The notes under the pieces: model-generated
Database searches by the model: none
The model's input: only the letters and a program-made list of their open reading frames with translations
What the model was told of the DNA's origin: nothing
Shown here: piece after piece, positions 50,364-63,224 of the stretch
Layout of the letters: each line of letters starts with the position of its first letter
Position numbering within the stretch: the first letter of the stretch is position 1
Made by a program: the position numbers and the translations under genes
Assembly: GCA_947165945.1 (NCBI GenBank)
Contig: CAMVCF010000002.1
Location: 1,057 to 65,056, forward strand
DNA from: an uncultured Clostridia bacterium
GTDB lineage: Bacteria > Bacillota_I > Bacilli_A > RF39 > UBA660
Reading direction: 5' to 3'
Length of the DNA: 64,000 nucleotides

Positions 50364-53054
50364 ATGAAAATATTGTATATTTCGTCTGGGCCATCCAAAA
50401 AAGAATATAAATATATTCAAAGTATGGTTAAAGATGACGATTTGAATAGTAGTTACGGAATGCCAGAAGCTAGTTATAAATTTCATAAATTAATTAGAGA
50501 AGGATTAATAGAAAATGATTGTATAATCGAATCTTTAGTTGGTAGATCTGTATCTTATAAAACTCATTCTGGTTTAATTTGGAAAAAACATAAAAGTTTA
50601 GAAAATAAAATTTTATATAGGCATTTGTTTTTTATAAATTTACCAATTATTAAACAATTATGTATATGCATAGAAATGTTTTTTTCAATACTTTTTTGGT
50701 TGCTTAAAAATAGAAAAGAGAAAAAAGCAATTATTATAGATGGTTCATATGTAACAGTTTTACCAGTATTGAATTTAGTAACTTTGTTTTCGAATACTAA
50801 TAAAATAGCAATTATATGTGATGTATATAATTATATGGCAGATGTTAAAGATGCTAATGTAAAAACAAATCTTCGCAATATGATTATGAATAAAATAATG
50901 AAATATCAGTATCGACAAATAGATGGTTTTGTTTTTTTAACAAAGGAAATGAGCAAAATACCTGCGTTTAAAGATAAACCATTTGTTGTAGTAGAAGGAA
51001 TTGTAGACAAGGAAATTAGTGAAAAAACAAAGTTTGATAATTATATAATGTATGCTGGTGCCTTGAGAAGTGAATATGGAGTAGAGAGATTAATCAAAGC
51101 ATTTACATCGTTAGAAAATAATGATTTTGAATTGCTATTATTTGGAAACGGCAATTATGTATCAGAGATAAAAAAAATAGCATCATTAAACAAAAAAATT
51201 AAATACATGGGAAAAAAATCTCTAGAAGAAGTATATGAATATGAAAAAAATGCAACTTTGTTAGTAAATCCACGTTTTGTAAAAGATGAATATACTAAAT
51301 ATTCATTTCCATCTAAAAATTTAGAATATATGCTATCAGGTACTCCTCTTTTAACTGGTTCATTACCAGGAATGCCTGAAGAATACTATGATTACGTTTA
51401 TTTAATTGAAGATGATTCTGTTGATTCATTAAAATCTGCATTAAAAAATATTTTAAAAAAACCACTTCAAGAGTTAAAGAAAAATGGACGGAAAGCTCAA
51501 AAATTTATTTCTACTTGTAAAAATAAATATGTGCAAACAAAAAAAATAATCGAATTAGATAAAAATATATCACACATGAAAAATACTAAAAAAAATGTAC
51601 ACACAATATTCAATTTTAATGGAATCAATAAGTATATTCCAATAATTCTAAGTGGTGGGTTCTTTTTATGTACCATTCTATTATTTATTTTTGGTCCATA
51701 TGATTGGCATATTAATAATGCTAATGAAGTGTATTCTTTTTTAATAGCATCATTTGTTTTTTTGATTTTTGGCTATTGCCTTGCAATTAAATTTTCAAAA
51801 ATTTATTCAGTAAGCAAATATTATGATATAAATAAAATATTATCAGTATGTATTGTTATATATATACTTATATATATTCCAACAGTTTATATAAGAACTG
51901 GTAAATTGTATCCAGATATTATAACAGGTATATTTAATAGTGGATATGCTTATAGTATTGCGCATAGTTCCAATAGTACATTAATTGAATATCTAAGAAT
52001 TATCTTTTCTCCGTTTATTGTAATAGTAACCCCTTTGTGTTTTTTATATTTTAAAAATTTAAGCAAAGTTAATAAAATACTTGGAATTATTTGTACACTT
52101 TTAACATTGTTTTTAGGAATATCATGTGGTATAAGTAAACAATTTGCTGATTTTGTTATTCAAGTATTTATCTTTTCAAGTTTATTATTTTTTTCTAATA
52201 ATTTTAAATCAGCAAAGAAAAAATTATTTTTAGTATTGTTTTTAATCTTGGTATCTGTTTCTTTTATATTATATTATAAAACTATAATGACTAATAGAAT
52301 AAGTACCGATATTGATGCGAACAATAAAATTAATAATTCAGAAATTGTTTTAAGTGAAGAACAAAAAAATAATCATATAAATGATAACAATATAAATAAT
52401 AGTAGTTTAGAAATTATAGACAACAAAAAATCTTTAGCAGTAGAAGAAAATTTAAATTCAGAAAAAATTGAGAATACAATGAAATCATATTCGACATTTG
52501 GATATGCAAATTTACGAAAAAATAATTTTATCATAGATTTATTGCCATCAAAATTAAAAACAGCAACTTTATACTTAATAAGTTATATCACTCATGGATA
52601 CAAGGGATTATCATTTGCAATGAGTAAAGATTTTACTTCGGCATATGGTTTAGGTTTTTCAGAATTTGCAAGACACAATGTTTCTAGGTTATTTGGAAAA
52701 GATTTTGAAGAAAAAATATATAAAAGAACTTATATGAGTAAAATTGAGGAAAATGGATGGTATACATTAGATGTTTGGTCGTCATTTTTCGTTTATCCTG
52801 CTTCTGATATTGGGTTTATTTTAACAGTTGTTTTGATGCTATTTATAGGTTTTGCATTCGGATACTCATGGAAAGACACTTTAATTACTGGAAACATGTA
52901 TTCTGCTATTTGTTCTTATAACTTTATTATAATGGTATTTTATTTATCTGCTAATAACCAATTATTTCAGACAGGAGAATCTTTTGTTTCTAGTTTCATA
53001 TTTTTTGTAATATATATATTTCAAATTTTAAATAGGAGGTTGAGTTTAAAATGA
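50364..53054 (+). CDS. Fusion protein: N-terminal GT4-type glycosyltransferase (~400 aa) plus a C-terminal ~490-aa polytopic membrane domain (polymerase/Wzy-like candidate)
   Basis: The GT-B motif is YAGALRSEYGV..LLVNPR....YTKYSFPSKNLEYMLSGTPLL. At least 10 predicted TM helices follow, interrupted by an Asn-rich loop (NNKINNSEIV..NNHINDNNINNSS). Confidence 0.6.
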   Translation: MKILYISSGPSKKEYKYIQSMVKDDDLNSSYGMPEASYKFHKLIREGLIENDCIIESLVGRSVSYKTHSGLIWKKHKSLENKILYRHLFFINLPIIKQLCICIEMFFSILFWLLKNRKEKKAIIIDGSYVTVLPVLNLVTLFSNTNKIAIICDVYNYMADVKDANVKTNLRNMIMNKIMKYQYRQIDGFVFLTKEMSKIPAFKDKPFVVVEGIVDKEISEKTKFDNYIMYAGALRSEYGVERLIKAFTSLENNDFELLLFGNGNYVSEIKKIASLNKKIKYMGKKSLEEVYEYEKNATLLVNPRFVKDEYTKYSFPSKNLEYMLSGTPLLTGSLPGMPEEYYDYVYLIEDDSVDSLKSALKNILKKPLQELKKNGRKAQKFISTCKNKYVQTKKIIELDKNISHMKNTKKNVHTIFNFNGINKYIPIILSGGFFLCTILLFIFGPYDWHINNANEVYSFLIASFVFLIFGYCLAIKFSKIYSVSKYYDINKILSVCIVIYILIYIPTVYIRTGKLYPDIITGIFNSGYAYSIAHSSNSTLIEYLRIIFSPFIVIVTPLCFLYFKNLSKVNKILGIICTLLTLFLGISCGISKQFADFVIQVFIFSSLLFFSNNFKSAKKKLFLVLFLILVSVSFILYYKTIMTNRISTDIDANNKINNSEIVLSEEQKNNHINDNNINNSSLEIIDNKKSLAVEENLNSEKIENTMKSYSTFGYANLRKNNFIIDLLPSKLKTATLYLISYITHGYKGLSFAMSKDFTSAYGLGFSEFARHNVSRLFGKDFEEKIYKRTYMSKIEENGWYTLDVWSSFFVYPASDIGFILTVVLMLFIGFAFGYSWKDTLITGNMYSAICSYNFIIMVFYLSANNQLFQTGESFVSSFIFFVIYIFQILNRRLSLK

Positions 53055-54562
53055 TAAAAACCTCAATATTATTAATGATATGTGTATTATTTAGTAAAAT
53101 ATTTGGTTTTTTAAGGGAAATTATCATTGCTTCTTATTATGGAACGTCTTTAAAAACTGATGCCTTTTTTGTAGCTCAAAATATCCCAACTATTGCATTT
53201 GCAGCGGTTGGGGCTGCTATATCTGTTGCAGTTATCCCAATATATACTAAATTACTTAAAAAGGATAAAAAAGAAGCTTCTTATTTTATTAATAATTTAA
53301 TAACAATATCATTTTTAATAACAACTCTTTTAATGATAATATGCGTAATTTATGCGAAAAATATTGTGTTATTAGTAGCTCCATCACTTTCAAATGATGG
53401 TATAAAACTAGCATCTAAGATGTTAGTAATATTATCGGTTACAATTTATTTTACTATGTTTAGTTACGTATTAGGTGGAATGTTAAATTCTCATAACAAA
53501 TTCTATATTCCTCAACTCGCAGCTATACCATATAATATCATTTCAGTTTTGTCAGTAATACTTTTTTCTAAAAAAATTGATATATGGGCGCTTGTCATTG
53601 GAACAATAGTAGGAATGTTTGTGCAAACAATTGTTCATATACTATCTGTACATAAATTTAATAAATATAAATTTATAATTGATTTCAAAGAAAAAAATTT
53701 AAAAAAATTATTGGTTCTTTCTTGGCCAATGGTTATAACTGTTTTATTTCAACAATTGAATTTAGTTGTTGATAAAAACTTAGCTTCATCATTTTCGGTT
53801 GGATCAATTTCAGCCATTAATTATTCAAATAGAATTATTGGCATTATATATGGTATTTTTAGTGTTTCTTTAATGACTGTTTTATATGCTAGATTTAATG
53901 AATTAATTATTGAGAAAAAGAAAGAGGTAGTTTTAAATTTATTAGTAAAAAGTTTAAATATAGTTTTGTTAGTTATTTTACCATTTATTATGTTATCTAC
54001 TGTATTTGACTCTGAAATAATTAATGCTATTTTTGGAAGAGGTGAATTTGATGCAAATTCGGTTGCTATAACAAGTAATGTATATTTATACTATTCATTT
54101 TCAATGTTTTCTATGGCTGCAAATGATATAATACTTAGATGTTATTATTCATTGGATGATTCAAAAACTCCCATGTTTATAACGGTTCTATGTGTAATAG
54201 TTAATATTATTTTGAGTGTTGTTTTATCTAAAAAATTAGGATTAAAAGGTATAGCAATAGGTACATCAATTGCGATGATTATTCAAACAATTTTGTTGTT
54301 TGTTATATTAAAGAAAAAAGAAAAATATAAATTTGAAAAAGTTTTTTATGTAGATTTTCTAAAAATTTTATTATCAAATATAATAATTTTAATTATATTA
54401 AAGTTATTATATTCATACTTAAATATTGATATTATTATTTTAAAGTTATTATTAGCAATATTTATTTGTATACCTATTTATCTTTTAATTCTATTTATAT
54501 TTAATATATCAATAAAAGAAGAATTAACAAAATTTATAAATAATAAGGAATTCTTTTCGTAA
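53051..54562 (+). CDS. murJ: MurJ/MviN-family lipid-linked oligosaccharide (lipid II) flippase
   Basis: 503 aa with the N-terminal signature FSKIFGFLREIIIASYYGTSLKTDAFFVAQNIP and 14 TM-like segments. RBS AGGAGG. Confidence 0.8.
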   Translation: MIKTSILLMICVLFSKIFGFLREIIIASYYGTSLKTDAFFVAQNIPTIAFAAVGAAISVAVIPIYTKLLKKDKKEASYFINNLITISFLITTLLMIICVIYAKNIVLLVAPSLSNDGIKLASKMLVILSVTIYFTMFSYVLGGMLNSHNKFYIPQLAAIPYNIISVLSVILFSKKIDIWALVIGTIVGMFVQTIVHILSVHKFNKYKFIIDFKEKNLKKLLVLSWPMVITVLFQQLNLVVDKNLASSFSVGSISAINYSNRIIGIIYGIFSVSLMTVLYARFNELIIEKKKEVVLNLLVKSLNIVLLVILPFIMLSTVFDSEIINAIFGRGEFDANSVAITSNVYLYYSFSMFSMAANDIILRCYYSLDDSKTPMFITVLCVIVNIILSVVLSKKLGLKGIAIGTSIAMIIQTILLFVILKKKEKYKFEKVFYVDFLKILLSNIIILIILKLLYSYLNIDIIILKLLLAIFICIPIYLLILFIFNISIKEELTKFINNKEFFS

Positions 54563-55943: not shown

Positions 55944-56483
55944 ATGAGTATATATGATTTAAAAGTTGAAAAAAGAGATGGAAGCAGTTTTTCTTTAGAT
56001 AATTACAAAGGAAAAATAATCTTAATTGTAAATACAGCAACAGGATGTGGATTTACTCCACAATATGAAGGACTTGAGTATCTTTATAAAAAGTATCATG
56101 ATAAAGGATTTGAAATACTAGATTTTCCATGTGATCAATTTGGACATCAAGCTCCAGGAAGTGATGATGAAATACATGAGTTTTGTCAAGCTAAATATAA
56201 AACAAGTTTTGATCAATTTAAAAAAATTAATGTAAATGGTGATTTAGAAGATCCATTATTTACATATATAAAAAAAGAACAACCTAATGAAGAAGTGCAT
56301 GGATTTAAAAATAAGATGTCTATGAAAGCTATTAAAAAAATTAGTTCAACATGTAAAAAAGATTCAGATATATCTTGGAACTTTACCAAGTTTTTAGTTG
56401 ATCGAAATGGTATTGTTGTTAAACGATATGATCCAACCTTCGAGCCAAAAAATATAGAAGAAGATATAAAAAAATATTTATAG
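55944..56483 (+). CDS. gpx: Glutathione peroxidase-family thiol peroxidase (Cys type)
   Basis: LIVNTATGCGFTPQY, FPCDQFGHQ and WNFTKFLVDR. RBS AAGGAGGA lies before ATG 55944. Confidence 0.9.
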   Translation: MSIYDLKVEKRDGSSFSLDNYKGKIILIVNTATGCGFTPQYEGLEYLYKKYHDKGFEILDFPCDQFGHQAPGSDDEIHEFCQAKYKTSFDQFKKINVNGDLEDPLFTYIKKEQPNEEVHGFKNKMSMKAIKKISSTCKKDSDISWNFTKFLVDRNGIVVKRYDPTFEPKNIEEDIKKYL

Positions 56484-56490
56484 GAATTAT

Positions 56491-56937
56491 ATGAGGTGTG
56501 AAGTATTGAAATTAAAAAATCAACTTTGTTTTCCAATTTATCTTGCATCAAAAGAGATTATAAAGCGATATACACCAATACTTAAAGAGATTAATTTAAC
56601 ATATACTCAGTATATTGTAATGATGTATTTTTGGGAGATAGGAACGTCAAATTTAAAAGAAATATCAAAAGCTTTATTACTAGATTCAAGTACTCTTACT
56701 CCACTTATTAAAAAATTAGAACAAAAAGGATATATTAAAAGAACTAGAAATAAGAACGACGAAAGAAATTTAAATCTTGTTTTAACAAAAACTGGAGAAA
56801 AATTAAGGGATAAAGCTTTAAATGTTCCAAATAAAATGAAAGAATGTATTAATTTAACTGATGATGAATCGATAACTTTATATTCATTAATATATAAAGT
56901 GTTAAAAAATGTAGAGGAGGATATAAAAAATGATTAA
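56491..56937 (+). CDS. ohrR: MarR-family regulator, OhrR-like (conserved N-terminal redox Cys)
   Basis: NQLCFPIYLASKEI...L.E.NLTYTQYIVMMYFWE matches the OhrR pattern. The start is uncertain (ATG 56491 or TTG 56506 after GAGGTG). Confidence 0.65.
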   Translation: MRCEVLKLKNQLCFPIYLASKEIIKRYTPILKEINLTYTQYIVMMYFWEIGTSNLKEISKALLLDSSTLTPLIKKLEQKGYIKRTRNKNDERNLNLVLTKTGEKLRDKALNVPNKMKECINLTDDESITLYSLIYKVLKNVEEDIKND

Positions 56938-57232
56938 AGAAATTACAGAAAATGAATTTGAAAAAGAAGTTTTAAACGGAGAAAGGGTAGTTGTAGATTT
57001 TTATGCAAATTGGTGTGGACCATGTAAAATGTTAAGACCAATTTTAGATGAAATAGCAGCTTTAGAAAAAATTAAAATTGTATCAATTGATGTTGATAGT
57101 GCAGATGAACTTGCATCAAAATACGGAATTATTTCAATTCCCTGTGTTATTCTTTTTGAAAATGGAAAAGAACTTACAAGAAGTGTTGGTCTAAAATCTC
57201 TGGAAGAATTAGAAAGTTTATTTGGGTTATAG
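56930..57232 (+). CDS. trxA: Thioredoxin
   Basis: 100 aa with the WCGPCK active site. Confidence 0.9.
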   Translation: MIKEITENEFEKEVLNGERVVVDFYANWCGPCKMLRPILDEIAALEKIKIVSIDVDSADELASKYGIISIPCVILFENGKELTRSVGLKSLEELESLFGL

Positions 57233-57233
57233 A

Positions 57234-58142
57234 ATGTATGATATTATTATAGTTGGAGCAGGTCCAGCCGGTCTTACAGCTGCAATTTATGCAAGACGTG
57301 CTATGAAAAAAGTTTTAGTTCTTGAAGCATTAAATTATGGTGGCCAAATTATTAATACCTTAGAAATTGAAAATTATCCTGTTACTCCTCATATTTCGGG
57401 TTTTGATTTTGCAACAAAACTTTATAATCAAGTAAAAGAACTTGGTACTGAAATTAAATTTGAAAAAGTAGTAGAATTAAAAGATAATAAAGAAATTAAA
57501 GATGTTGTTACAACAAAAAATATTTATAAGGCACGAAGTGTTATTCTTGCAACCGGATCTGTAAATAGAAAATTAGGCCTTTCTAATGAAGACAAGCTAA
57601 TTGGTCATGGAGTATCATATTGTGCTACATGTGATGGAGCATTTTTTAAATCGCGTGAAGTTGCGGTCGTAGGTGGTGGTAATACTGCTATACAAGATGC
57701 CCTTTATTTAACAAATATTTGCAAAAAGGTTTATTTAATTCATAGAAAAGAAGAATTAACCGGTGAAGAAATTAATATATCATTATTAAAAGAAAAGAGT
57801 AATTTTGAATTTATTAATAATAGTAATGTTACAAAACTAAATGGTACAGATAAACTTGAAAGTATTGAAGTAACAAGTAATAATAACAAAAGAACAATAC
57901 CTGTTGAAGGAATATTTGTTGCTATTGGGCGAATTCCTGCAACTGAAAACTTTAAAAACTTAATAAATGTAGATTCAAATGGATATATTGATTCCGATGA
58001 AATGTGCAACACCAATGTAGATGGAATATTTGTTGCAGGTGATAATCGAAAAAAGTCGTTAAGACAATTAGTAACTGCAACAAGTGATGGAGCAATTAGC
58101 GCAAGTGAAGCTATTAAATATATTAATTCTTTAAAAAAATAA
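57234..58142 (+). CDS. trxB: Thioredoxin-disulfide reductase
   Basis: YDIIIVGAGPAGLTAAIYA, the redox centre CATCDG and GGGNTA. The alternative TTG start is at 57222. Confidence 0.9.
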   Translation: MYDIIIVGAGPAGLTAAIYARRAMKKVLVLEALNYGGQIINTLEIENYPVTPHISGFDFATKLYNQVKELGTEIKFEKVVELKDNKEIKDVVTTKNIYKARSVILATGSVNRKLGLSNEDKLIGHGVSYCATCDGAFFKSREVAVVGGGNTAIQDALYLTNICKKVYLIHRKEELTGEEINISLLKEKSNFEFINNSNVTKLNGTDKLESIEVTSNNNKRTIPVEGIFVAIGRIPATENFKNLINVDSNGYIDSDEMCNTNVDGIFVAGDNRKKSLRQLVTATSDGAISASEAIKYINSLKK

Positions 58143-58146
58143 CTAG

Positions 58147-58704
58147 TTAAATATTTTTGCGAATTAAAGAAACGACTTTACCTAAAATACAATTAGTATT
58201 TTCTAAAATAATTAGATCTTTATCGTTTATAAGATGGTTAAATCCATCTTTTTTTACATATTTATAAATTCCATATGAATTACAATAATTGACTAAGACA
58301 AATTTGTTATTTAAATAAGAGTTATCTTTATCAATAATTAATATGTCTTTATAAAAAATACCACTATTTTTTAAATAATTATTTTTAATTTGAAAAGCTA
58401 CATATTTTTTTTCTTGATTAAGGTAGTTTTCTATCTTTAAGACTTTTTTTTCATCTATAAATGGAATTGATAGTATGTCTTTTATTAAAGTAGAGTCTTT
58501 TAAAAATGTAATTTTTTTATCATCTTTTGAAAATATTAAATATCCTTTTTCTTCTAATTTGGTTAAATATTGATAAATTGTATTATAAGATTTAGCCATG
58601 GTTTGTTTTTTTATTTCATTTAGAGTAGGTAAATGATTATTATTCTTTGTTAATTCAAATAATAAATTATAAAAGTATTCTTGCTTTTGACTTAGTTTAT
58701 TCAT
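58147..58704 (-). CDS. LexA-like repressor paralogue (winged-helix N-terminus plus an S24-like C-terminal domain lacking the catalytic Ser)
   Basis: N-terminus LSQKQEYFYNLL....NNHLPTLNEIKKQT..KSYNTIYQYLTKLEEKGYL (LexA_DNA_bind-like). The C-terminal alignment to LexA puts NNYL where GDSM is expected. The Lys is kept (IYKYV versus TVKRF). No Ala-Gly cleavage site is seen. RBS AGGAG lies before ATG 58704. Confidence 0.55.
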   Translation of the reverse strand: MNKLSQKQEYFYNLLFELTKNNNHLPTLNEIKKQTMAKSYNTIYQYLTKLEEKGYLIFSKDDKKITFLKDSTLIKDILSIPFIDEKKVLKIENYLNQEKKYVAFQIKNNYLKNSGIFYKDILIIDKDNSYLNNKFVLVNYCNSYGIYKYVKKDGFNHLINDKDLIILENTNCILGKVVSLIRKNI

Positions 58705-58743: not shown

Positions 58744-58764
58744 AATATGAAGATATTTCATATT
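58744..58764. promoter_or_regulatory. Perfect 8-bp inverted repeat AATATGAA-N5-TTCATATT in the divergent promoter region (candidate operator)
   Basis: Arms at 58744-58751 and 58757-58764, 40 nt upstream of the LexA-like start and about 100 nt upstream of the ABC exporter gene. Confidence 0.4.
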
Positions 58765-58865
58765 TCATTGTTTGCAAAATCTTTTAAAATATATGAAAAA
58801 ATATTTTTTAATTTTTTGTTTTATACCAAAAAAATCTTTTATATTATAATTGGAGGTTTTAGTTG

Positions 58866-60911
58866 ATGAAAGTTTTGTATGTTAAGCAAACAGATGCAAA
58901 AGATTGTGGTGTATCTTGTTTAATTTCAATAGTTAGATTTTATGGTGGTTATGTAAGAAGAGAATATCTTAGAGAGCTTACAAATACAGGTATAAATGGT
59001 GTATCTTGCTATTCTTTAATTGAAGTTGCTCCTGTTTTAGGAATGGAAGCAAAAGCAGTAAAAGGAAATATTAATAATTTAAAATTACATTTACCTTGCA
59101 TTGCTCATATCATTACCAAAAACAATATGGGTCACTTTGTAGTTATTTCTAAAATTGATTCCAAATATATTACAGTTATGGATCCTAGCTGTGGTTTTTG
59201 CAAATATAATTATCAAGAATGGGAAAAAACTACTACAAATGTTTATCTTTTATATAAGCCAAAAACAACTATTTTAAAACAAGAAAAAGAAACTAGTTTT
59301 TTTAAATTAATTATACCAATTTTAAAAAAATACAAAAAAACATTTTTAATTATAATATTCTTTTCTTTTGTTTATTCTGTTTCAAATATTGTTTTATCTT
59401 ATGGATTTGAATTCTTTATGAAAAGTGATTATTCAAAAATAAAAGTTATTTTTATCTTTTTAAGTATAATTCTTTTATTAAAAGAAATAACAAATTTATT
59501 TCGAAATTATCTTATTAATTATATGAATCATATAATAGATAAAACATTAATACAAGAAATATATAATCATATTATTAGACTTCCATATTTATATTTTAAA
59601 AATCATATGAAAGGAGATATTATAACAAGAATAGAAGATTCTTTTAAAATTCGAGATGTTATTAGTAGCTGTTTTACAACATTCATTATTGATTTTATTT
59701 TTATAATAATAATATTAATAGCTATGATGCGAATTAATTTTAAACTTAGTATCTATATTTTAGGAATAACTATTTTATTAATTATAGTAATTTTTCTTTA
59801 TAACTTTATTATTAGGAAGAATTTAAAGAAAATGAAAGAACAACAAATTCTTTTAAATAACCATATTATAGAATCATTAAGTTCAGCTGATACAATTAAA
59901 AGTATGCAAATAGAAGATTTTTTAAAAGAAAAATTAGAATATAAATATAGTTTGTTACAAGAAAAAAGCTATCTTGTAAATAAAAATTTTATTAAATCTA
60001 ATTTCTTTAAAGAAATAACATATGGATTTGGACTTTTAGTTGTATTATATCTTGGAGTTTTAGATAAATTTACATTTAGTAATTTAGTTGTTTTTTATAC
60101 CCTTACAGTATATTATTTTAATCCTATAATTAATATTTGTGATTTAAACTTGCAAATAGAAGATGCTAAAATTTCATTTTTGAGAATTAAAGAATTATTA
60201 AATGTTGATGAAGAAAAACTTCTTCCAGATAAAAAAACTTTATCAAGTAAATTAAGAGGAGAAATTGATATAAAAGAATTAAAGTTTTCTTATAATGGAT
60301 TAGATTTCCCATTAATTTGTAAGAAACTGCATATTAAAGGAGGAGAAAAAGTTTTGTTATATGGTGTAAGTGGATCAGGAAAAAGCACATTAATGAAACT
60401 AATTGTTCGTTATATTGAAAGTCAAAAAGGTTATATTTTACTTGATAATAGAGCTTTAAGTGATTATAACTTATTGGATATTAGGAATAAAATAACTTAT
60501 CTTTCTCAAGATGAAACTTTATATACGGATACCGTTTATAATAATATTGTATTAAAAAACAATATTTCTTATGAAAAATATCTAGAAATTATAAAGTTAA
60601 CAGGTGTTTCTAAAATAATTGATCGAAGTATTTTAAAAAGTGATATGATGCTAGACAATAATGCAAGTAATTTATCAGGGGGAGAAAAACAAAGAATTTT
60701 ACTTGCAAGAACTCTTGCAAAGAATAGTAACATTTATATATTTGATGAATCGTTTTCAGCAATTGATATTAAAGAGGAACGAATTTTATTAAAAGAAATA
60801 TTTTCTTATCTAAAAAATAAAACAGTAATTGTAATAAGTCATCGTTTTAATAATCGGGATTTATATCAACAGTTTATTTTAGTTGAGAAAGGAGTGGTTT
60901 ATGAGTATTGA
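58866..60911 (+). CDS. Bacteriocin-processing ABC exporter with an N-terminal C39 peptidase domain (LagD/ComA/SunT class)
   Basis: C39 Cys (QTDAKDCGVSCL) and His (NMGHFVVI), six TM helices, Walker A GVSGSGKST, signature LSGGEKQR and Walker B IYIFDE. Confidence 0.9.
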   Translation: MKVLYVKQTDAKDCGVSCLISIVRFYGGYVRREYLRELTNTGINGVSCYSLIEVAPVLGMEAKAVKGNINNLKLHLPCIAHIITKNNMGHFVVISKIDSKYITVMDPSCGFCKYNYQEWEKTTTNVYLLYKPKTTILKQEKETSFFKLIIPILKKYKKTFLIIIFFSFVYSVSNIVLSYGFEFFMKSDYSKIKVIFIFLSIILLLKEITNLFRNYLINYMNHIIDKTLIQEIYNHIIRLPYLYFKNHMKGDIITRIEDSFKIRDVISSCFTTFIIDFIFIIIILIAMMRINFKLSIYILGITILLIIVIFLYNFIIRKNLKKMKEQQILLNNHIIESLSSADTIKSMQIEDFLKEKLEYKYSLLQEKSYLVNKNFIKSNFFKEITYGFGLLVVLYLGVLDKFTFSNLVVFYTLTVYYFNPIINICDLNLQIEDAKISFLRIKELLNVDEEKLLPDKKTLSSKLRGEIDIKELKFSYNGLDFPLICKKLHIKGGEKVLLYGVSGSGKSTLMKLIVRYIESQKGYILLDNRALSDYNLLDIRNKITYLSQDETLYTDTVYNNIVLKNNISYEKYLEIIKLTGVSKIIDRSILKSDMMLDNNASNLSGGEKQRILLARTLAKNSNIYIFDESFSAIDIKEERILLKEIFSYLKNKTVIVISHRFNNRDLYQQFILVEKGVVYEY

Positions 60912-61020
60912 TCCCTTTTATAAATTTGAATGTAATATTTCAAAATATCAACTTTTATATGTACTTGTAGTATTAGGTCTAGGAGTTATTCTTTTCTTTT
61001 ACCTAATTCTAGTATTTTAA
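60901..61020 (+). CDS. Small membrane ORF (39 aa, MSIDPFYKFECNISKYQLLYVLVVLGLGVILFFYLILVF), not in the ORF track
   Basis: The ATG overlaps the 3' end of the ABC gene, and there is a single C-terminal TM helix. It is an accessory or immunity candidate. Confidence 0.35.
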   Translation: MSIDPFYKFECNISKYQLLYVLVVLGLGVILFFYLILVF

Positions 61021-61036
61021 TTAGAAAGGAGAATTT

Positions 61037-61174
61037 ATGATCAATTTAAAAGAAGATGAGTTAAAAAAGATAAATGGCGGAGGAGTAGGCTGGGGAATTG
61101 TTGGTATTGGCGCTTTATTGACATTTTTAGCAGGGCTAATTGACGGCTATGCAAGACCATTTAAATGTAATTAG
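61037..61174 (+). CDS. Double-glycine-leader bacteriocin precursor 1 (45 aa)
   Basis: MINLKEDELKKINGG | GVGWGIVGIGALLTFLAGLIDGYARPFKCN. RBS AAGGAG lies 6 nt upstream. The leader fits the (L/I)..EL..I.GG consensus, and the core is Gly-rich with GxxxG motifs. Confidence 0.8.
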   Translation: MINLKEDELKKINGGGVGWGIVGIGALLTFLAGLIDGYARPFKCN

Positions 61175-61185
61175 AAAGGAGTTTT

Positions 61186-61353
61186 ATGAAAAGGTTAACT
61201 AAATTAGAAAGTCAAAAAATTATAGGTGGTGCTAGTATAACTGGAGCAATTTTAAGTTCTATTAAAGGTTGTATTAGCGTAGTTTTTGAAATAGGTCAAG
61301 CAGTAGGTGGGGCTATTAGAAGAATTTCAACAGGTAATCTATGCAAATTTTAG
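61186..61353 (+). CDS. Double-glycine-leader bacteriocin precursor 2 (55 aa)
   Basis: MKRLTKLESQKIIGG | ASITGAILSSIKGCISVVFEIGQAVGGAIRRISTGNLCKF. The same AATTAGAAAGGAG RBS cassette precedes it as for peptide 1. The core has two Cys. Confidence 0.8.
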   Translation: MKRLTKLESQKIIGGASITGAILSSIKGCISVVFEIGQAVGGAIRRISTGNLCKF

Positions 61354-61511
61354 AAAATAAAATCATTAAAAATTATATTTTACCAATTGTTTTTATTCCA
61401 ATTCTTTGCTTAATTTCTATGATAATAATTAATTTTATTTTTTCAAGTGGAAAATATTTTGGGACATTTTTAAGAGCCTTATATGAGTTAGTTTTAAAAA
61501 ATGTGAAATAA
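61341..61511 (+). CDS. Small membrane ORF (56 aa), immunity protein candidate
   Basis: MQILENKIIKNYILPIVFIPILCLISMIIINFIFSSGKYFGTFLRALYELVLKNVK. It overlaps the end of peptide 2 and has one or two TM helices. Confidence 0.4.
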   Translation: MQILENKIIKNYILPIVFIPILCLISMIIINFIFSSGKYFGTFLRALYELVLKNVK

Positions 61512-61632
61512 AAAACACCAAAAAAATAGAAAAACATATAATATTTTAGAAAAAAATGCTGATTTTTGTTGAATTTTTCGTTTTAGTTTGATATAATCTA
61601 TTTGATTTCAGAACGAAGGGAGGGAGTAATGA

Positions 61633-61827
61633 ATGACACATGTTGCTGTTAGAAATGGTAATCTAGATGGGGCTTTAAGGAAGTTTAAACAAAAAGTTGC
61701 AAGAGATGGAATCCCTTCAGAGTTCAAAAAAAGAGAAGCTTATGATAAACCAGGCGTTAAAAGACGTGAAGCAAAAAAAGCTGGTATTAAGAATGCACGT
61801 AAACGTGAAAGAAATAATAGAGACTAA
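61633..61827 (+). CDS. rpsU: Ribosomal protein S21
   Basis: 64 aa: ..V.VRNGNLDGALRKFKQKVARDGI..E.KKREAYDKPGVKRREAKKA. RBS GGGAGGGAG. Confidence 0.9.
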   Translation: MTHVAVRNGNLDGALRKFKQKVARDGIPSEFKKREAYDKPGVKRREAKKAGIKNARKRERNNRD

Positions 61828-62795: not shown

Positions 62796-63224
62796 ATGAG
62801 AAGATTTTATATTTTTAGTATTCGAGAAGAACTTTTAAGTTTATATTCAGAAAATCCAGGTAATTTATATAAAATATTAGATAGTATTTATAAAATGGAT
62901 GAAGAAGAATTAACATATGCATTTAATTTATTTAAACAGATTTGTATTTCAATAGATAGTTTAGACCTCAATAATCAAATCTATTTAAAAATGCATAATG
63001 ATCTCATTTATACAAAACTTGGAAATGAGCATATTATAAATAATTTATACAAAGATGAGGTAAGTATTCTTAAAATTAAAAAAAGTCATTTAGTACTTGA
63101 TTGTAATTCATCATATTCTTCTTTTTTTAAATTTTTAAATAAACTTAATAAAAATTATTTTATTTGTGATTTTAAAAGTGGAGATTATTTCTTTTTAAAA
63201 GATATTGAATTAGTTGTAAATTAA
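62796..63224 (+). CDS. Hypothetical protein, possibly SirA-like (sporulation inhibitor of replication, DUF2522)
   Basis: 142 aa. The MRRFYIFSIREEL..LY start and the ..CDFKSGDYFFLKDIE end resemble the SirA family pattern. The assignment is weak. Confidence 0.35.
   Translation: MRRFYIFSIREELLSLYSENPGNLYKILDSIYKMDEEELTYAFNLFKQICISIDSLDLNNQIYLKMHNDLIYTKLGNEHIINNLYKDEVSILKIKKSHLVLDCNSSYSSFFKFLNKLNKNYFICDFKSGDYFFLKDIELVVN

Follow-up and report, generated by a model that had tools for sequence, protein, structure and literature searches.

Here we describe a cluster of five genes, a candidate operon for a two-peptide bacteriocin, on the forward strand of a 64,000-nucleotide stretch of DNA (hereafter the window) from an uncultured Clostridia bacterium (contig CAMVCF010000002.1, positions 1,057 to 65,056). 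The first gene encodes an ATP-binding cassette (ABC) exporter with an N-terminal C39 protease; it runs from an ATG at 58866 (or a TTG at 58863) to 60911 and specifies 681 (or 682) residues. Four short open reading frames (ORFs) follow on the same strand: orf39 (60901-61020), a single-pass membrane ORF of 39 residues that overlaps the stop of the exporter gene; pepA (61037-61174) and pepB (61186-61353), which encode precursors of 45 and 55 residues; and orf56 (61341-61511), a 56-residue membrane ORF whose start overlaps the stop of pepB. A preliminary description of this DNA had reported such an exporter followed by four short genes, and we found all of them in place, with sequences identical to those quoted there. 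The four ORFs fall below a 60-residue ORF cut-off, and public gene callers have already called all of them in metagenome assemblies, without names.

The double-glycine leaders that had been assigned to two of the short ORFs are indeed present, in pepA and pepB, and comprise 15 residues each. When split after Gly-Gly, the pepA precursor consists of the leader MINLKEDELKKINGG (61037-61081) and the 30-residue core GVGWGIVGIGALLTFLAGLIDGYARPFKCN (61082-61171), and the pepB precursor of the leader MKRLTKLESQKIIGG (61186-61230) and the 40-residue core ASITGAILSSIKGCISVVFEIGQAVGGAIRRISTGNLCKF (61231-61350). The leaders of both families follow the pattern M-x2-L-x3-E-L-x2-I-x-G-G, with Glu at position -8 and hydrophobic residues at -4, -7 and -12. 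The two genes lie 11 nt apart on the same strand with no terminator between them, and each is preceded by an exact copy of the ribosome-binding cassette AATTAGAAAGGAG (61019-61031 ahead of pepA, 61169-61181 ahead of pepB). This 13-mer, which had also been pointed out earlier, occurs exactly twice in the window, against 0.43 occurrences expected by chance, and two or more matches were obtained in 4 of 100 shuffles. The Shine-Dalgarno sequences of pepA and pepB are strong and correctly spaced. Some public calls lengthen pepB at its N-terminus by ~15-17 residues, giving forms of 70-73 residues with the pattern M-x-L-Q-D-H-L-N-V-I-K-K-G (P0009, P0011, P0012, P0015, P0021 and P0027); these look like mis-called upstream starts that read through the 3' end of pepA and the ribosome-binding site, not like longer leaders.

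A word-based search with pepB led to relatives whose contigs all show one cassette, and we compared 11 other lineages (denoted by L numbers below), 12 in all with the window. The order in these relatives is C39 ABC exporter, small membrane ORF, pepA, pepB, usually a membrane ORF of 53-56 residues, and rpsU. In each of the 11 other lineages pepB comes next after pepA, with order and spacing unchanged, the pepA homologues measuring 45-48 and the pepB homologues 45-56 residues, and in 11 of the 12 lineages (the exception is L025) rpsU lies directly downstream of the cassette. The exporters of the relatives are 29-63% identical to that of the window. Their contigs come from cattle and sheep rumen samples (STEW19, SHIW14, XIEF21, WILK20) and, for L030-L032, from the Hadza human gut, with a GC content of 22-27%. 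One human-gut variant is present in 163 blocks of a public assembly index. When genome contigs were scanned with the window's exporter, all matches were remote ABC proteins (26-33% identity).

Because synonymous sites are saturated among these lineages (pS ~0.5), we compared the divergence at non-synonymous sites (pN) and did not use dN/dS. The values are 0.22 for pepA, 0.24 for pepB, 0.25 for orf56, 0.26 for the exporter gene and 0.36 for orf39, so that amino acids in pepA, pepB and orf56 are replaced at about the rate seen in the transporter. Since pS stands near 0.5 against pN of 0.22-0.36, the four short ORFs are real coding genes under purifying selection. Only their shortness and the AT-rich composition of the window (24.5% GC) could suggest that they are chance open frames behind an orphan ABC transporter. 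Such an explanation has practically no probability left, given protein-level conservation in at least 11 lineages, Shine-Dalgarno sequences that are strong and correctly spaced and motifs that are invariant throughout the families; the conservation data refute it. The preliminary description had named loss of the short ORFs beside the same exporter as a sign against its proposal, and the comparison of lineages turned out the other way.

The exporter exceeds the Pfam thresholds for Peptidase_C39 (PF03412), ABC_membrane (PF00664) and ABC_tran (PF00005), and its architecture is that of an N-terminal C39 protease followed by six transmembrane helices and a nucleotide-binding domain. The closest solved structure is PCAT1 from Clostridium thermocellum (4RY2), with E = 1e-93 over residues 2-676, and ComA comes second among the solved relatives (E = 3e-76). 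The protease residues of PCAT1 are matched in the alignment by a Cys (in DAKDCG), a His (in GHFVV) and an Asp (in MDP), and the ATPase motifs (Walker A, signature, Walker B, H-loop) all have their canonical form. The likeness to PCAT1 and ComA therefore covers the architecture, the full-length alignment, the intact catalytic triad and the ATPase motifs, and the difference is one of subfamily: the exporter fails to reach the curated cut-offs of two models, TIGR01193 and the Mycoplasma 'Mbov_0121 family' peptidase-ABC model (293 bits, cut-off 500, for the latter), which marks it as a member of a divergent PCAT subfamily. Judged by its sequence, a catalytically intact C39 ABC gene thus adjoins both genes with double-glycine leaders, and its product is predicted to cut these leaders and to export the pepA and pepB peptides. 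No HlyD/LcnD-type protein appears among the domain matches between 50.3 and 63.2 kb, in agreement with what had been said of this neighbourhood.

The pepA peptide belongs to a family of its own. A word-based search with pepA alone returned only pepA itself, and a profile built from the syntenic homologues collected 72 clusters at 90% identity, none of them named. Residues G33, D36, G37, R40 and P41 are invariant in the 72 sequences, and with them the motif G33xxxG37; C44 is present in 71 of 72, and 71 carry exactly one Cys, located 1-2 residues from the C-terminus. The N-terminus of the core is very hydrophobic, and the tail, G-(V/L/I)-(I/V/L)-D-G-x-x-R-P-x-x-C, is specific to the family; to our knowledge it does not occur in lactobin A or cerein 7B. 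AlphaFold2, run with the family alignment, predicts one helix over residues 14-43, with a predicted local distance difference test (pLDDT) score of 93-96 in the core. Against the NCBIfam model TIGR03949 (class IIb, lactobin A/cerein 7B), pepA scores 24.7 bits and passes the cut-off of 21.5; relatives score 24.5 and 31.0 bits, some of them 16.3, and 54 of the 72 family members match at E <= 0.01. Scores against the lactococcin G/enterocin 1071 models are 21.3 (NF038034, beta) and 18.4 bits (NF038035, alpha), where both cut-offs are 37. We also observed that for 16 of the 72 peptides the Mycoplasma 'MPN313 family' model gives a match over its N-terminal portion, and the MPN313 and Mbov_0121 matches together hint at related pairs of double-glycine peptide and PCAT-type exporter in Mycoplasma.

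The pepB family is large. The word search gave 22 relatives with 54-79% identity, and a HMMER scan with the pepB profile gave 239 clusters at 50% identity (E <= 1e-3). A broad alignment of 62 sequences shows no variation at G15, G37 and C53 and keeps G14, G41, R45 and R46 in at least 90%, so that pepB too carries a GxxxG motif, formed by G37 and G41. C53 is the sole Cys in 52 of the 62 members, and relatives have Tyr, Phe, Ile, Val or Leu where the window's pepB has its second Cys, C29. The 40-residue core is amphipathic with a net charge of +3, and AlphaFold2 with the family alignment predicts one helix over residues 17-49 (pLDDT 85-94). No Pfam or NCBIfam family matches pepB at threshold: it reaches 12.6 bits against NF038035 (alpha; cut-off 37), and the window's pepB has no match to TIGR03949. 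A search of the PDB with the pepB profile found no relative, and Foldseek found no matches for either peptide model, as expected of single helices. A full-text search of a literature collection with six motifs of the pepA and pepB families found no occurrence, nor did the supplements of the Hungate1000 bacteriocin survey contain one; the peptides may be listed by IIBacFinder.

Many loci with double-glycine leaders encode several independent peptides, and the two precursors could accordingly be one-peptide (class IId-type) bacteriocins, or a bacteriocin and an enhancer, that merely share one exporter. The size of the pepB-like family (239 clusters at 50% identity; for pepA, 72 clusters were found at 90%) would fit this, and so would the matches of 7 of the 62 pepB-like peptides to TIGR03949, from which the A and B peptides may be distant paralogues. 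We nevertheless consider independent action unlikely: the two genes are adjacent, with order and spacing constant in 12 of 12 lineages, exactly one conserved GxxxG and exactly one conserved C-terminal Cys are kept by either peptide, and the two evolve at an equal rate.

The small membrane ORFs on either side of the peptide genes had been put forward as immunity or accessory candidates. orf39 has an 18-residue Kyte-Doolittle maximum of 3.13 and is 37-57% identical to its counterparts in relatives. Its slot holds proteins of 39-44 residues in relatives and of 132-140 residues in some, and is absent in L025. orf39 aligns with the N-terminus of the 132-140-residue proteins (L014, 5439-5837; L024, 6579-7001; L026, 6603-7004; L029, 4592-4999; L030, 5441-5842), implying that the window lineage has a truncated form that is still conserved. 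In the longer proteins a transmembrane segment at the N-terminus is combined with a domain of ~100 residues at the C-terminus, which ends in F-I-V-R-x-(I/M)-K-G-E. Searches of Pfam, NCBIfam and PDB with orf39 and its 132-140-residue homologues found no relative. We considered that the longer protein might be a minimised HlyD/LcnD, on account of a C-terminal K-I-Y-L-G-x-E-x-L-F-x-Y-I-I pattern, and the Pfam, NCBIfam and PDB profiles gave no support for this. orf39 remains an accessory or immunity candidate.

orf56 has one transmembrane segment (Kyte-Doolittle maximum 3.04 at residues 13-30) and an amphipathic tail (helical moment 0.52 at residues 36-53) with the motif G-x-Y-x-G-T-F-x-R. Homologues are found in 8 of 10 other lineages checked, and orf56 resembles no known immunity protein in Pfam or NCBIfam. 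By its position and its translational coupling to pepB, orf56 is an immunity candidate. The earlier suggestion is weakened where the immunity role of orf56 is concerned, since two lineages discussed below do without this gene.

Upstream of the exporter gene and divergent from it lies a gene for a LexA-derived repressor (58147-58704, minus strand), assigned from Pfam, NCBIfam and alignment. It encodes 185 residues beginning with MNKLSQ; this start is preceded by AAAGGAGAT and is also the one used by public gene callers, and a start at 58761 that would give a 204-residue ORF is probably spurious. The protein passes the Pfam threshold for LexA_DNA_bind (27.1 bits, cut-off 23.7) and stays below the cut-off for Peptidase_S24 (18.3 bits); its alignment to TIGR00498 is full-length and scores 44.4 bits, below the cut-off of 110.95. 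A PDB search with it returned nothing meaningful. In an alignment of four lineages we placed the segment equivalent to GDSM by eye, against what we take to be the B. subtilis LexA sequence, and it reads KNNYL in the window, HDNKL in L014 and SDNSL in L018. The same alignment contains no Ala-Gly in the linker, and the Lys position of the dyad is Gln in L018. In LexA-like proteins the Ser-Lys dyad is highly conserved and the Ala-Gly site strictly so, and the RecA-independent IrvR of S. mutans keeps both (PMC7101444). Lacking both the catalytic Ser and the Ala-Gly site, the window's protein is predicted to be incapable of self-cleavage, and in this it differs from LexA and IrvR, with which it shares the LexA-type winged-helix domain, the weak full-length match to TIGR00498 and the divergent position relative to a putative target operon.

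A further likeness to LexA and IrvR is a palindromic candidate operator over the gene's own promoter. Between the divergent promoters lies the palindrome AATATGAA-GATAT-TTCATATT (58744-58764), whose arms match perfectly over 8+8 nt and whose core is TGAA-N5-TTCA. The -35 hexamer of the extended -10 promoter predicted for the LexA-like gene (58751-58724, minus strand) overlaps with this palindrome; promoter-like matches in our scan were at chance level for AT-rich DNA (30 against 25.4 expected). In 9 lineages the distance from the core to the exporter start downstream is 108-113 bp. The palindrome appears as ATATGAA-N5-TTCATAT in the window and L027, as GGTGAA-N5-TTCACC in L014-17, L018, L022 and L028, and as TGTGAA-N5-TTCACA in L030, and at the same distance L029 keeps a canonical GAAC-N4-GTTC box (TTGAACATTTGTTCAA). 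With respect to LexA the half-site spacing is altered, TGAA-N5-TTCA standing in place of TGAA-N6-TTCA. L030 also shows, by eye, a terminator-like hairpin with a T-run upstream of the palindrome.

The LexA-like gene is divergent to the exporter gene in 7 lineages, the genes beyond it varying (trxB, an aminoacyl-tRNA synthetase, trmK, prsA), and the palindrome is kept in L022 and L030, neither of which has an adjacent LexA-like gene. From this distribution we count the LexA-like gene, or at least its putative operator, among the conserved parts of the locus, and we infer that a LexA descendant that has lost self-cleavage may repress both itself and the peptide operon from the palindrome. The window holds one further match to the operator, inside efp and at chance level, and the loci of the relatives hold palindromes only at the site upstream of the exporter gene, so that no regulon can be inferred. 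Another short element, the 9-nt box TATATTATA (58840-58848), stands 3 nt upstream of the exporter's Shine-Dalgarno sequence TGGAGG (58851-58856). It is invariant in 6 of 6 aligned lineages, in intergenic DNA that has otherwise diverged, and may serve as a -10 element, as a second operator or as a signal for translation. The statement that the LexA-like protein is the only regulator nearby needs correction, as a MarR-family gene lies at 56491-56937; the statement that there is no histidine kinase/response regulator pair agrees with our domain matches, which contain none within ~8 kb upstream or 2 kb downstream (50.3-63.2 kb).

We read the cluster, with moderate confidence, as a five-gene operon for a two-peptide bacteriocin of the class IIb type, as the preliminary description had proposed for a class II system; the paired genes with double-glycine leaders, the intact C39 exporter, the GxxxG in each peptide and the coupled membrane ORF all support it. 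Class IIb bacteriocins are defined by leaders of the double-glycine type, 15-30 residues long and cut by a dedicated ABC transporter, by GxxxG, AxxxA or SxxxS motifs in both peptides and by an immunity gene in the same operon; GxxxG occurs in every two-peptide bacteriocin that has been characterised, and has been proposed to mediate helix-helix pairing (PMC2850506). The window locus resembles such systems as lactococcin G and plantaricin EF and JK (PMC2850506) in that its two peptide genes are adjacent within one putative operon, share a C39 transporter and specify 15-residue double-glycine leaders, followed by hydrophobic or amphipathic, cationic peptides of 30-40 residues that are predicted to be helical and carry one GxxxG each, and in that a gene for a small membrane protein comes next.

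It differs from them in several respects. Its peptides have no significant sequence similarity to lactococcin G or enterocin 1071, and each carries one conserved C-terminal Cys. An accessory protein of the LcnD/HlyD type, usual in class IIb though not universal, is lacking here, as is regulation by a pheromone, histidine kinase and response regulator. The locus is tied to a degenerate LexA and a candidate operator, and in contrast to plasmid-borne or strain-variable loci it is chromosomal, with a fixed place beside rpsU and deep conservation. With TIGR03949 the likeness lies in the leader and the Gly-rich hydrophobic core of pepA.

Under the class IIb reading, the two precursors would be translated from identical strong ribosome-binding sites, and the C39 domain would recognise their amphipathic 15-residue leaders and cut after Gly-Gly, so that the exporter would release a very hydrophobic peptide A of 30 residues and an amphipathic, cationic peptide B of 40 residues. 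Export may proceed without a HlyD/LcnD-type partner, as in PCAT1. Outside the cell each peptide would form one long helix, the pair packing through their single conserved GxxxG motifs and spanning the membrane, with the conserved C-terminal Cys of each placed just past the helix, beside a conserved Arg or Lys. Such a pair, probably acting through a membrane-protein receptor, might permeabilise related Gram-positive cells, and the producer would be protected by the coupled 56-residue membrane protein, by the 39-residue membrane ORF or by both. Expression would probably be set by the non-self-cleaving LexA-derived repressor acting on TGAA-N5-TTCA between the divergent promoters. The killing activity, the synergy of the peptides, the immunity and the regulation in this scheme are all predictions from the DNA.

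Several observations weigh against the class IIb assignment. The exporter reaches 333 bits against TIGR01193, whose cut-off is 524. The match of pepA to TIGR03949 appears marginal, with a margin of ~3 bits that is partly borne by the leader, and pepB, judged by our searches, is outside every known bacteriocin family, with no model, structure or name. The promoter of the exporter gene could not be placed with confidence, as promoter-like matches are at chance level, and the locus has no three-component quorum-sensing regulator. orf56 is absent from L018 (5140-5410) and L028 (5321-5490), the closest relatives, both of which keep the two peptides; its role in immunity is therefore uncertain, and its absence would be awkward if it were the sole immunity gene. 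Finally, a locus that is anchored to rpsU and retained at 30-63% exporter identity looks more like part of a core genome than like a strain-variable bacteriocin.

The last of these points also suggests a different explanation, in which the exported pair is no weapon but a conserved module of this clade with a role in physiology or signalling, for instance a factor that is associated with the membrane or with division and controlled by a former SOS repressor. The position upstream of rpsU is fixed and persists at exporter identities of 30-41% and in both rumen and human gut, a LexA-derived regulator or a LexA-type box accompanies the operon, orf56 is dispensable in some lineages, and pepA has a weak likeness to the divisome peptide Blr. 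By position the pair might also be comparable to the small membrane proteins beside lexA in other Firmicutes (yneA/sosA). The match to Blr is below threshold (19.4 bits, cut-off 27) and probably reflects hydrophobic composition only. In addition, the pheromones that C39 transporters export differ in being short and hydrophilic and in evolving fast, whereas pepA and pepB are transmembrane-like GxxxG helices of 30-40 residues, which is the signature of bacteriocins, and no cognate sensor kinase is present. We therefore judge a physiological or signalling role to be quite improbable, and retain the two-peptide bacteriocin as our interpretation.

The genes around the cluster give a picture of the host. 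Beside the LexA-like gene is a redox cluster (55944-58142) of glutathione peroxidase, a MarR/SarA-type regulator (the MarR-family gene mentioned above), thioredoxin and thioredoxin reductase, in this order and tightly packed, with some stops and starts overlapping. The redox neighbourhood is also found in L028, and a thioredoxin gene is adjacent in L018. Downstream of the cluster, rpsU (61633-61827) has its own strong promoter-like site, TTGAAT-17-TATAAT with a TG upstream (61569-61597); no terminator-like hairpin was found between the peptide operon and rpsU, which is followed by rpmG (L33; 61955-62119). An Rfam scan of the window returned no match. The window further encodes a homologue of SirA, the sporulation inhibitor of replication (62796-63224), the flippase MurJ (53051-54562) and a protein of 896 residues (50364-53054) that joins a GT1 glycosyltransferase domain (residues 217-377) to a polytopic membrane region of ~450 residues without a Pfam match, and the relatives carry genes for SpoIIIAH, GerE and YlbD. 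SirA and MurJ, together with the SpoIIIAH, GerE and YlbD genes of the relatives, identify the host as a walled Bacillota of the spore-former type and not a Mollicute.

Taken as a whole, the locus is of a known type, but the family it represents has no name and is widely conserved among uncultured bacteria with very AT-rich DNA from the gut of ruminants and humans. A more speculative view, which we think unlikely to hold in all its parts together, is that of an ancient, vertically inherited module upstream of rpsU in gut Bacillota of ~22-27% GC, for which LexA has been co-opted as the repressor and in which the helix pair depends on Cys. LexA would then have lost self-cleavage while its box drifted from GAAC-N4-GTTC to TGAA-N5-TTCA, and the peptides, with one invariant or nearly invariant C-terminal Cys each, would be a disulfide-linked heterodimer or otherwise thiol-dependent. 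We know of no intermolecular disulfide in any unmodified two-peptide bacteriocin.

A LexA descendant that lacks the catalytic Ser and the cleavage site and is tied to a conserved putative operator may be the more original lead, and it bears on the fate of the SOS repressor in reduced, AT-rich genomes. If the class IIb reading is true, the system would be a minimal one of its class, composed of an exporter, a pair of peptides and one or two very small membrane proteins; working without a HlyD partner or a quorum-sensing circuit, it would be well suited to heterologous expression. If the peptides are active, abundant uncultured Firmicutes of the gut would possess a widespread two-peptide bacteriocin that had no name before, and the family could help to shape the communities of the rumen and the human gut.

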